From: a virus
Lineage: Duplodnaviria > Heunggongvirae > Uroviricota > Caudoviricetes
Virus record (IMG/VR): IMGVR_UViG_2671180814_000014
Length of the DNA: 7,503 bases
Reading direction: 5' to 3' (one strand)
Part shown: one piece after another, positions 6,001 to 7,503 of the stretch
Layout: every line of letters begins with the position of its first letter
Position numbering within the stretch: position 1 is the first letter of the stretch
Made by a program: the position numbers

Positions 6001-7503
6001 AAATCATCTTCAGAAGGAAACCATACACACTCACTGTCCGGCACAGCAGCATCTGCGGGTGCACACGCGCATACTGTCGGTATTGGTGCTCATACGCACT
6101 CTGTTGCGATTGGTTCACATGGACACACCATCACCGTTAACGCTGCTGGTAACGCGGAAAACACCGTCAAAAACATCGCATTTAACTATATTGTGAGGCT
6201 CGCATAATGGCATTCAGAATGAGTGAACAAGCACGGACCATAAAAATTTATAACCTGCTGGCCGGAACTAATGAATTTATTGGTGAAGGTGACGCATATA
6301 TTCCGCCTCATACAGGTCTGCCTGCAAACATCGTGGCATCTCGTTGAAGATCATCGGGGTAAAACGGTTTATGACGTGGCTTCCGGCGACGCGTTATTTA
6401 TTTCTGAACTCGGCTCATTACCGGAAAATGTCACCTGGTTATCCCCGGAAGGGGAGTTTCAGAAGTGGAACGGCACAGCCTGGGTGAAGGATACGGAAGC
6501 AGAAAAACTGTTCCGGATCCGGGAGGCGGAAGAAACAAAAAACAGCCTGATGCAGGTAGCCAGTGAGCATATAGCGCCGCTTCAGGATGCTGTGGATCTG
6601 GAGATCGCAACGGAGAAAGAAACCTTGTTGCTGGAAGCCTGGAAAAAGTATCGGGTGTTGCTGAACCGTGTTGATACATCAACTGCACCGGATATTGAAT
6701 GGCCAGTAGCACCTATAGGGTAAATTCGTAATGATTACCTAAATACGTTATTCTTTTGTTAAAAAAGTGATTTTGCTATAGGTAGGGAGTATGTTCTTGG
6801 ATTAAGAATAAAAAATCGCCATGAAAGAGCTTCATGGCGAGTACATAAACGTACAAAATGTGATGAAAGTAGAGTGGCGTAAGCCACTATATTAAGATAT
6901 GACAATAGCGAAGAAAAGTAAATAACATTTTATGGACGTTTAATTGTTAATTATAAAAACTAGAGTGCCCGATATTGTTTATCTTGCTTTAAAATAATGT
7001 ACTCAAACCAAATTTTTGAGCTAAAAGCTCAAATAATATAAATGCAATAATAATGTTTAATAAGACAATTAGCTTGCTTTGTATTTTCATTTCGGAATAC
7101 TGTTAAGTAACTTTGATGACCCTAACAATAGATCGGAATTTTCTTAGAGTCAATGGTCACTGTTTTTGCTTGCAAAGCAAATGTTTTGGTGGTTATAAGT
7201 TGTCTTAATATAGTCACGCATGCAACTTGTTCCATGCGGAGATTAAAGATTGGAATATAACGCGAAGATGGAATTAAATTACATTTGCAATAATCAATTT
7301 ATTATTACTCAATAATTACCGATATTATTATTGTAAATTAATCATTAGAGTGCAAAAAGAAATGTAACGGCAAAATAAGAGGACGATAGCTGAGAAAAAA
7401 GCGTGCTTTCCCAATCTGGGGCAAATCACGTCTGAATGACACCTGAAAACAGGTGGTAGCCTCAAGAAGGCTGGTGATGCTGCCAACTTACTGATTTAGT
7501 GTA

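Follow-up and report, generated by a model that had tools for sequence, protein, structure and literature searches.

Downstream of the tail-fibre assembly gene tfa, a lambdoid prophage carries a small mobile cassette that encodes a predicted YncL-like membrane peptide and a conserved RNA element, followed by filler DNA and a recombination scar. The window analysed here is the whole 7,503-bp stretch taken from a tailed-phage record (Caudoviricetes; IMG/VR IMGVR_UViG_2671180814_000014). It spans the right-hand end of a lambdoid late operon, with the C-terminal part of J, rearranged copies of lom, stf (3004-6207), and tfa, which ends at 6723. The segment that follows (6724-7472) is bounded by the insertion sequence IS1 and consists of three unrelated pieces, which we call module A, the filler, and the fossil attachment site (Table 1). 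We favor the interpretation that the segment is a moron-type cassette joined to filler and a recombination scar, truncated by IS1, and give it a probability of roughly 0.6.

Boundaries and composition of the segment

A first-pass annotation of the window had described the segment as A+T-rich DNA without annotated open reading frames (ORFs), set off by a sharp change in composition at the tfa stop codon and ending exactly at an IS1 terminus. Both boundaries held. GC content was 0.316 across 6724-7472 and 0.526 across 1-6723 (0.485 within tfa), and no other 749-bp stretch of the window fell below 0.462. The drop sets in at the tfa stop codon (6721-6723). At the other end, the IS1 terminal inverted repeat GGTGATGCTGCCAACTTACTGAT was matched at 7473-7503, so that the left end of IS1 begins directly after the segment.

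The remainder of that description stood in part. A+T-richness is a property of 6724-7387, whereas the last 85 bp (7388-7472) have a GC content of 0.48 and differ in origin from the rest. Long ORFs are indeed lacking, the longest within the segment spanning 52 aa, but a conserved ORF of 33 codons is present. The segment is unannotated in all RefSeq matches.

Module A is a mobile cassette found next to tfa

To delineate the pieces, the segment was compared by megablast with 5426 complete Escherichia coli genomes. The full 749 bp were present in 280 of these. Several hundred further genomes contained 6724-7301 alone, and many other prophages have 7388-7472 alone at their right ends. In the isolated phages ev099, mEp332, and PhiR70_1, the complete segment is located between tfa and int/xis, the position of the b-region.

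Module A was found in 827-829 genomes (~15%). Its GC content of 0.30 contrasts with 0.53 for the tail genes. It always lies just downstream of tfa, while its next neighbors vary (an AraC-family regulator gene, ydfJ, or sitABCD). These correspond to three settings: phages integrated at the lambda attachment site (att-lambda), remnants at the Qin site beside ydfJ, and prophages beside sitABCD. Identity among the settings ranges from 96% down to 79%, and homology stops at ~7301 in all cases. The filler that follows is confined to the 280 genomes and three phages with the full-length segment, and promoter-like matches within it were at chance frequency only.

The O157 and sequence type 131 (ST131) prophages that we examined lack module A after their tail-fibre genes. 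A blastn search from the diverged variant revealed no third tier of relatives. Similarly, a protein-pattern scan of species-representative genomes gave no locus confirmed by tblastn, and a DNA-pattern scan returned chance matches only, in unrelated phyla. In two sitABCD-linked prophages (loci L009, 2783-3645, and L010, 2524-3386), fragments of the 3′ end of tfa flank module A on both sides, which suggests that the cassette moves by recombination within tfa.

An IS1-free state was found by BLASTN, a comparison that the first-pass annotation had proposed. In the prophage of strain TUM9757 (locus L001), located beside ybhB/bioA and thus at att-lambda, 1505 unannotated bp follow tfa. Beyond these lie the gene for a 247-aa AraC-family regulator, IS remnants, and the chromosome. 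In IS1-free relatives, the segment continues through the rest of an attachment-site fossil and 278 bp of core chromosome to the regulator gene. We propose that the segment represents accessory b-region DNA from a lambdoid prophage that has integrated at att-lambda. The expectation that the DNA downstream of lambdoid tail-fibre genes is a site for accessory cargo was borne out by the b-region/moron position of the segment and by the cargo it carries. No type III effector gene is involved at this segment.

A 33-codon reading frame under purifying selection

The minus strand of module A contains an ORF that is annotated in none of the RefSeq or phage records examined. Homologues with 79% overall identity keep its frame, length, and stop codon despite a 5-nt indel immediately after the stop. 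Differences fall mostly at third codon positions. Comparison with the 79% variant gave 11 synonymous and 7 non-synonymous differences, for a ratio of non-synonymous to synonymous rates (dN/dS) of 0.09. The corresponding values for a 91% variant were 5 and 1, with a dN/dS of 0.04. Judged by this pattern of substitution, ORF 7090-6989 is a real gene under purifying selection.

The predicted product has a single hydrophobic span (mean hydropathy of 2.5 over residues 7-25). The NCBIfam hidden Markov model for YncL (NF000537) matched it with E = 1.3e-5 and 25.0 bits, covering residues 1-28 of 30 profile positions. BLASTP against YncL of E. coli K-12 gave 39% identity and 64% positives over 28 aa, ungapped from Met1 (E = 2e-7). 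K-12 YncL is an inner-membrane protein of 31 aa, and the phage peptide resembles it in length (33 aa) and in having one hydrophobic span. Residues common to both are S5, L10, N12, A16, L19-F20, L22, and F27-G28. The genes differ in their surroundings. K-12 yncL is located at the patD-ortT locus, is preceded by the Shine-Dalgarno sequence AAGGTGG, and has a short 3′ end. In contrast, the phage gene lies in a cassette, lacks a Shine-Dalgarno sequence, and is followed by a long conserved 3′ RNA. Based on these comparisons, the peptide is best classed as YncL-like and not as an equivalog.

An exhaustive HMMER search of 1.84 billion representative proteins recovered only the exact protein (one cluster) and a frameshifted variant. 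This branch of the family is therefore narrow. The peptide sequence was also absent from papers in the literature searched.

Other ORFs in the region were rejected as genes. A 37-aa ORF (7235..7122), annotated in PhiR70_1, has lost its ATG in most variants. A 48-aa ORF starting with TTG (6905..6759) passes through the terminator described below, and toward its 3′ end the DNA is diverged and contains an indel. A 55-aa ORF annotated in ev099 (L001 8615-8782) overlies the attachment-site arm and lacks protein-like features.

The small membrane protein YncL is induced by stress, and when it is produced the membrane is depolarised, the nucleoid condenses, and the phage-shock response is switched on (PMC12542507). 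By analogy with K-12 YncL, the phage peptide would most likely alter membrane energetics or the stress state of the lysogen. The resulting role might be a lysogenic-conversion or exclusion-type function.

A promoter-like site precedes the small gene

A promoter-like site lies 28-35 nt upstream of the ATG. The 79% homologues keep it as TTGACT-17-TATCGT, with 87% local identity. It matches the consensus at 9 of 12 positions, and such matches are no commoner here than in shuffled sequences. In our model, a sigma-70-type promoter at 7153-7125 would drive a short mRNA for the putative YncL-family inner-membrane peptide (7090-6989). Module A would be a moron-type cassette read opposite to, and converging on, the late operon.

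Table 1. Features of the segment downstream of tfa. Positions are those of the window. Identities are local values measured in homologues that are 79% identical overall.
Feature	Position	Strand	Identity	Details
Module A, A+T-rich cassette travelling with the tfa 3′ end	6724..7301	-		Based on distribution and homology limits
Spacer next to tfa	6740-6800		53-63%	
Intrinsic terminator	6806..6840	-		Stem 6840..6816, UCGCCAUGAA-GCUCU-UUCAUGGCGA, then UUUUUUAUUC
Conserved RNA element, ~135 nt	~6806..6943	-		Hairpin 6888..6873 (AGUGGCUUACGCCACU) plus terminator
RNA hairpin, linker, and terminator	6810-6888		93-97%	
Spacer	6930-6990		50-67%	
Unannotated 33-aa ORF, YncL-like single-pass membrane peptide (predicted)	6989..7090	-	77-87%	MKIQSKLIVLLNIIIAFILFELLAQKFGLSTLF; based on conservation, dN/dS, and YncL similarity
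Promoter-like site (conservation interval)	7123-7152		87%	
Promoter-like site, TTGACT-17 nt-TATTGT	7125..7153	-		Predicted transcription start ~7118
Spacer	7150-7190		57-67%	
Conserved block upstream of the small-ORF promoter	7191-7250	.	90-93%	
Lineage-specific A+T-rich filler	7302..7387	.		GC 0.26
First 85 bp (phage arm) of a fossil right attachment site (attR) of a serU (tRNA-Ser)-integrating lambdoid prophage, cut by IS1	7388..7472	+		Based on comparison with L001
IS1 left terminal inverted repeat	7473..7503	+		ggtgatgctgccaacttactgatttagtgta; continues past the window edge

A conserved, terminator-ended RNA element follows the gene

About 180 nt of minus-strand sequence separate the stop codon of the small ORF from a strong intrinsic terminator, whose 10-bp stem (-14.4 kcal/mol) precedes U6. 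Scanning for such structures found 2 sites where 0.3 were expected. Across 11 variants, the pairs of the stem are either invariant or change from G-U to A-U. The U-run is present on the minus strand only.

The last 146 nt of this RNA (6945-6800, minus strand) fold at -34.6 kcal/mol, with a z score of -7.0 relative to shuffled sequences. All 32 predicted pairs are kept among the 11 variants. The best-conserved part of all of module A lies here (6888-6810, 93-97% identical), with both flanks at only 50-67%. These observations are compatible with the predicted RNA structure.

In the model we favor, the transcript of the small gene would run through this ~180-nt conserved structured tail and end at the terminator, ~85 nt from the tfa stop. 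The conserved 3′ RNA would then most likely control expression of the peptide or be released as a small RNA (sRNA) derived from the 3′ untranslated region (3′ UTR). The first-pass annotation had suggested that the segment might encode a small RNA or peptide, which fits both the YncL-like ORF under purifying selection and the putative RNA element ending in a terminator. On the evidence of sequence comparison, the RNA element could be either the 3′ UTR of the small ORF, a processed 3′-UTR RNA, or a separate sRNA.

The last of these amounts to a distinct reading, in which an independent, trans-acting sRNA gene of the Hfq-dependent type is transcribed from its own promoter, acts on host or phage mRNAs, and merely lies beside the small ORF. 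A -10-like hexamer at 6955..6950 (TATAAT, or TACAAT in the homologues) survives in an otherwise diverged spacer. The element itself starts with a 5′ region, followed by a hairpin and then by an A/U-rich linker and a Rho-independent terminator with a U-run, the latter two being traits of Hfq-type sRNAs. Its conservation peak is also stronger than that over the ORF. However, the -35 region is poor, and a 4-nt indel separates the -10 hexamer from the conserved part. There was no match to an Rfam family, and pairing with ompC was not significant. Small RNAs encoded at moron sites of prophages have been described (PMC4104026); the known prophage anti-sRNAs sit at the PR′ moron site, unlike module A. 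We regard a free-standing sRNA gene as rather unlikely.

A further reading proposes a minus-strand RNA akin to MicC, which would regulate porins and lower OmpC, the receptor of Stf-type side tail fibres. It arose from a weak match to the Rfam MicC model (RF00121) at 6802-6929(-), with 22.8 bits and E of 0.25-0.92. By inspection, 12 of 16 bases in the variant of the window are identical to the MicC 5′ seed. The element also resembles MicC in length, unpaired 5′ end, internal hairpin, and terminator. The gathering score of the model is 90, however, and the 79% homologue L009 gave no match at E <= 10. The MicC-like bases are the least conserved part of the element. Duplexes with the K-12 ompC leader reached -29.8 and -31.8 kcal/mol, compared with a shuffle mean of -31 +/- 4.4 (p 0.4-0.56). 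As a positive control, the real MicC/ompC duplex scored -48.9 kcal/mol, better than all 400 shuffles. Since the match is lost in the diverged homologue and pairing with ompC is at the level of shuffles, the resemblance to MicC was rejected as chance, and a porin-regulating role is highly improbable.

Could the RNA restrain a toxic peptide?

The pairing of a small hydrophobic peptide with a structured RNA resembles a type I toxin-antitoxin module. In such a scheme, the toxin would be the YncL-like peptide, acting by membrane depolarisation. Its translation would be repressed by the conserved downstream RNA through base pairing at the start region, whether in cis by folding back, as in hok mRNA, or as a separate sRNA. 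Membrane depolarisation upon YncL production (PMC12542507) would suit a toxin, as would a start codon that lacks an exposed Shine-Dalgarno sequence. In the RNAalifold consensus, the start region is paired with 5′ sequence of the RNA element; each partner is changed in the 79% homologue, and some of the pairing persists there. In addition, a plus-strand promoter-like site at 6899-6928 could give rise to an antisense RNA across the ORF.

Quantitatively, the duplex between the start region and the RNA element was no more stable than dinucleotide-shuffled controls (p ~0.16-0.54 in six variants). Moreover, the pairing does not involve the stretch of the RNA that is best conserved. That the phage peptide would be toxic is suggested only by analogy with YncL. 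Known type I pairs of E. coli use divergent or overlapping antisense genes, not a downstream RNA on the same strand. The locus is thus like tisB/istR-1, zorO/orzO, and hok/sok in combining a small hydrophobic peptide that has a depolarising homologue with a structured, conserved untranslated RNA and no strong ribosome-binding site. It is unlike them in that complementarity between the RNA and the start region is not significant. A toxin-antitoxin role appears improbable.

A broader proposal is that the YncL-like gene and its downstream RNA together form a previously unrecognised phage-borne regulatory unit. A membrane-depolarising micro-peptide would be checked by, or co-produced with, a 3′-UTR-derived or independent sRNA. 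Its effect on the lysogen might be exclusion, abortive infection, or stress tolerance, and it would pass between lambdoid phages along with the tail-fibre assembly genes. We offer this as a tentative idea that is rather unlikely.

Relation to lambdoid morons

Lambdoid morons, such as lambda bor and lom and HK97 gp15, are autonomous promoter-gene-terminator cassettes in the late region that are expressed from the prophage. Module A shares with them an atypical base composition, a promoter-like site, a terminator, and a place beside tail genes. Like morons, it is present or absent between related phages and encodes a (predicted) membrane protein. It is also oriented opposite to the late operon, as is lambda bor. 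It differs in that its predicted product is much smaller and most of its predicted transcript is non-coding.

Several observations weigh against the moron-type interpretation. The YncL model score of 25 bits is below the curated cut-off of 35 bits, a shortfall that may also explain why the 33-codon gene is not called by the Prokaryotic Genome Annotation Pipeline (PGAP). No Shine-Dalgarno sequence precedes the ATG. For the RNA, a single pair covaries (G-C/G-U/A-U, within a 7-bp closing helix), and this was equaled by 77 of 500 shuffles and is not significant; because sequence diversity is too low, covariation is too weak to decide the structure. Among the few candidates tested (its own start region and ompC), neither a target nor a partner of the RNA emerged. 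Only ~4 sequence types of module A exist, all in E. coli phages, and an 80-nt peak of conservation could in principle also arise from a recent patch of recombination. Finally, the interpretation leaves the conserved 60-bp block at 7191-7250 without explanation, as no conserved ORF, promoter, or hairpin was found in it.

Every kind of element involved is already known (phage moron, YncL family, tRNA attachment site, and IS1 deletion), and current understanding is not overturned. What is new is that phages widely carry an unannotated paralogue of YncL, and that its RNA tail is unusually conserved. A conserved micro-protein gene has been missed by automatic annotation, although its cassette is present in ~15% of complete E. 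coli genomes and in several isolated lambdoid phages. By analogy with K-12 YncL, a paralogue that lies beside host-range genes is a reasonable candidate for a lysogenic-conversion or exclusion function.

A fossil serU attachment site lies beyond the filler

The origin of the last 85 bp of the segment was revealed by the IS1-free locus. In L001, the block that starts at window position 7388 (L001 8665-8865) runs for ~200 bp into the 3′ part of serU. Identity to serU extends over ~56-62 nt, from ~8860 to 8921, covering the anticodon stem to the CCA end. The next 278 bp are the DNA found downstream of serU in 5423 of the 5426 E. coli genomes, K-12 included. L001 8665-9199 thus holds the full series expected of an attR, namely phage arm, tRNA 3′ part, and chromosomal flank, of which the window keeps 7388-7472 only.

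A true prophage junction of this kind was found in the ST131 strain 4993, where the right-hand boundary of a lambdoid prophage is made up of the same block, serU fragment, and flank. At the left end of that prophage, an intact serU lies beside an integrase gene. The tRNA fragment has the native chromosomal bases in the variable arm, and the regenerated serU has the phage version, as expected for a displaced copy of serU at attR. The order found in L001 (phage arm, displaced serU 3′ part, chromosome) is identical to this ST131 junction and typical of attR junctions at tRNA genes. Here, by contrast, the junction lies inside phages that integrate at att-lambda, and is therefore a fossil and not an active site. 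Positions 7388-7472 are the start of a fossil attR that was carried into att-lambda phages together with chromosomal DNA. In its combination of attR and chromosomal flank, the arrangement is similar to the capture of flanking DNA in specialised transduction.

The AraC-family gene beyond the scar scored best against YdeO (149 bits, below the cut-off) and matches phrog_1450. From its context the regulator is probably PatE or a close relative. In O157:H7, the gene belongs to a P2-like remnant that also contains pinE; there the same tRNA fragment precedes it, but the phage arm does not. The att-lambda phages (L001 8665-9199) and this remnant (L067 4994-6860) share the native serU 3′ part and the 278 bp of core chromosome ahead of the AraC gene. 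This shared DNA is a footprint of chromosomal DNA captured by aberrant excision and then spread between unrelated prophages. The fossil attR in att-lambda phages thereby documents the pick-up and phage-to-phage passage of chromosomal DNA along with a PatE/YdeO-like regulator gene. In our model, the start of the serU attR would have entered the phage lineage with the adjacent chromosome and this gene.

These relationships bear on a simpler view of the segment as non-functional spacer, or as an H-NS-silenced upstream regulatory region of the AraC gene truncated by IS1. As this view would predict, the segment is rich in A+T and carries no annotation in any RefSeq record, and an AraC-family gene does lie downstream in IS1-free relatives. 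Yet the ORF is under strong purifying selection, conservation across module A is patterned, and the attachment-site fossil and core chromosomal DNA lie between module A and the AraC gene. The two also occur independently of each other: the gene is present without module A in O157:H7, and module A is present without the gene in Qin-site and sitABCD-linked prophages. The view is largely refuted by these data and we consider it very unlikely. For the same reasons, the suggestion in the first-pass annotation that the segment is the regulatory or 5′ part of a cargo gene truncated by IS1 did not hold, since the next gene is separated from it by the fossil and 278 bp of core chromosome. Nor is the segment ordinary conserved intergenic DNA without adjacent cargo.

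A serU-type attachment arm was seen in an O157:H7 prophage at the Rac site (L004 3800-4300), where it lies downstream of three nleG-like (DUF1076) effector genes. It has direct repeats of ~70 bp on its flanks and diverges inside the tRNA fragment. This region looks nested or recombined.

IS1 insertion removed part of the scar

The window is collinear without a break to strain 2009C-3133 (locus L002), in which an annotated IS1A transposase lies inside a 768-bp insert that starts at the same base. The identical junction is carried by many genomes. The right end of IS1 is beyond the window; the target site was judged in L002, which shares the junction. The 768-bp IS1 replaces 550 bp (L001 8750-9299). 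A search for the flanking target-site duplication, as had been proposed, found none of 8-9 bp at the L002 element (left flank AAGAAGGCT, right flank CTTATTGGC). The absence of a 9-bp duplication together with the missing 550 bp indicates that IS1 made an adjacent deletion, and such an IS1-mediated event fits the loss. By this account, IS1 would have inserted last, deleting 550 bp of the scar.

In L002 (8750-9723, outside the window), IS1 now lies 206 bp upstream of the AraC regulator gene and could alter its expression.

The tail genes of the window are rearranged

Within the window, tfa (6207-6723) is broken. Approximately 65 bp of the intact gene (L001 7543-7607) are missing at ~6330, leaving two overlapping ORFs (6207-6347 and 6271-6723). 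The prophage is therefore probably defective for side tail fibre assembly. The lom-stf region (1171-2911) is also rearranged. ORF 1171-1911 encodes a Lom protein that matches Pfam in two separate pieces, beside an A+T-rich stretch (1401-1700; GC 0.38). ORF 2063-2911 precedes the full stf and encodes a chimera that joins the Stf N-terminal domain (aa 1-134) to Lom (aa 142-281). A strong match to Rfam IS009 (195 bits, against a gathering score of 117) was obtained at 6500-6683 (+), within the coding sequence of tfa. This family appears to model a segment of the tfa gene and not a separate RNA gene.

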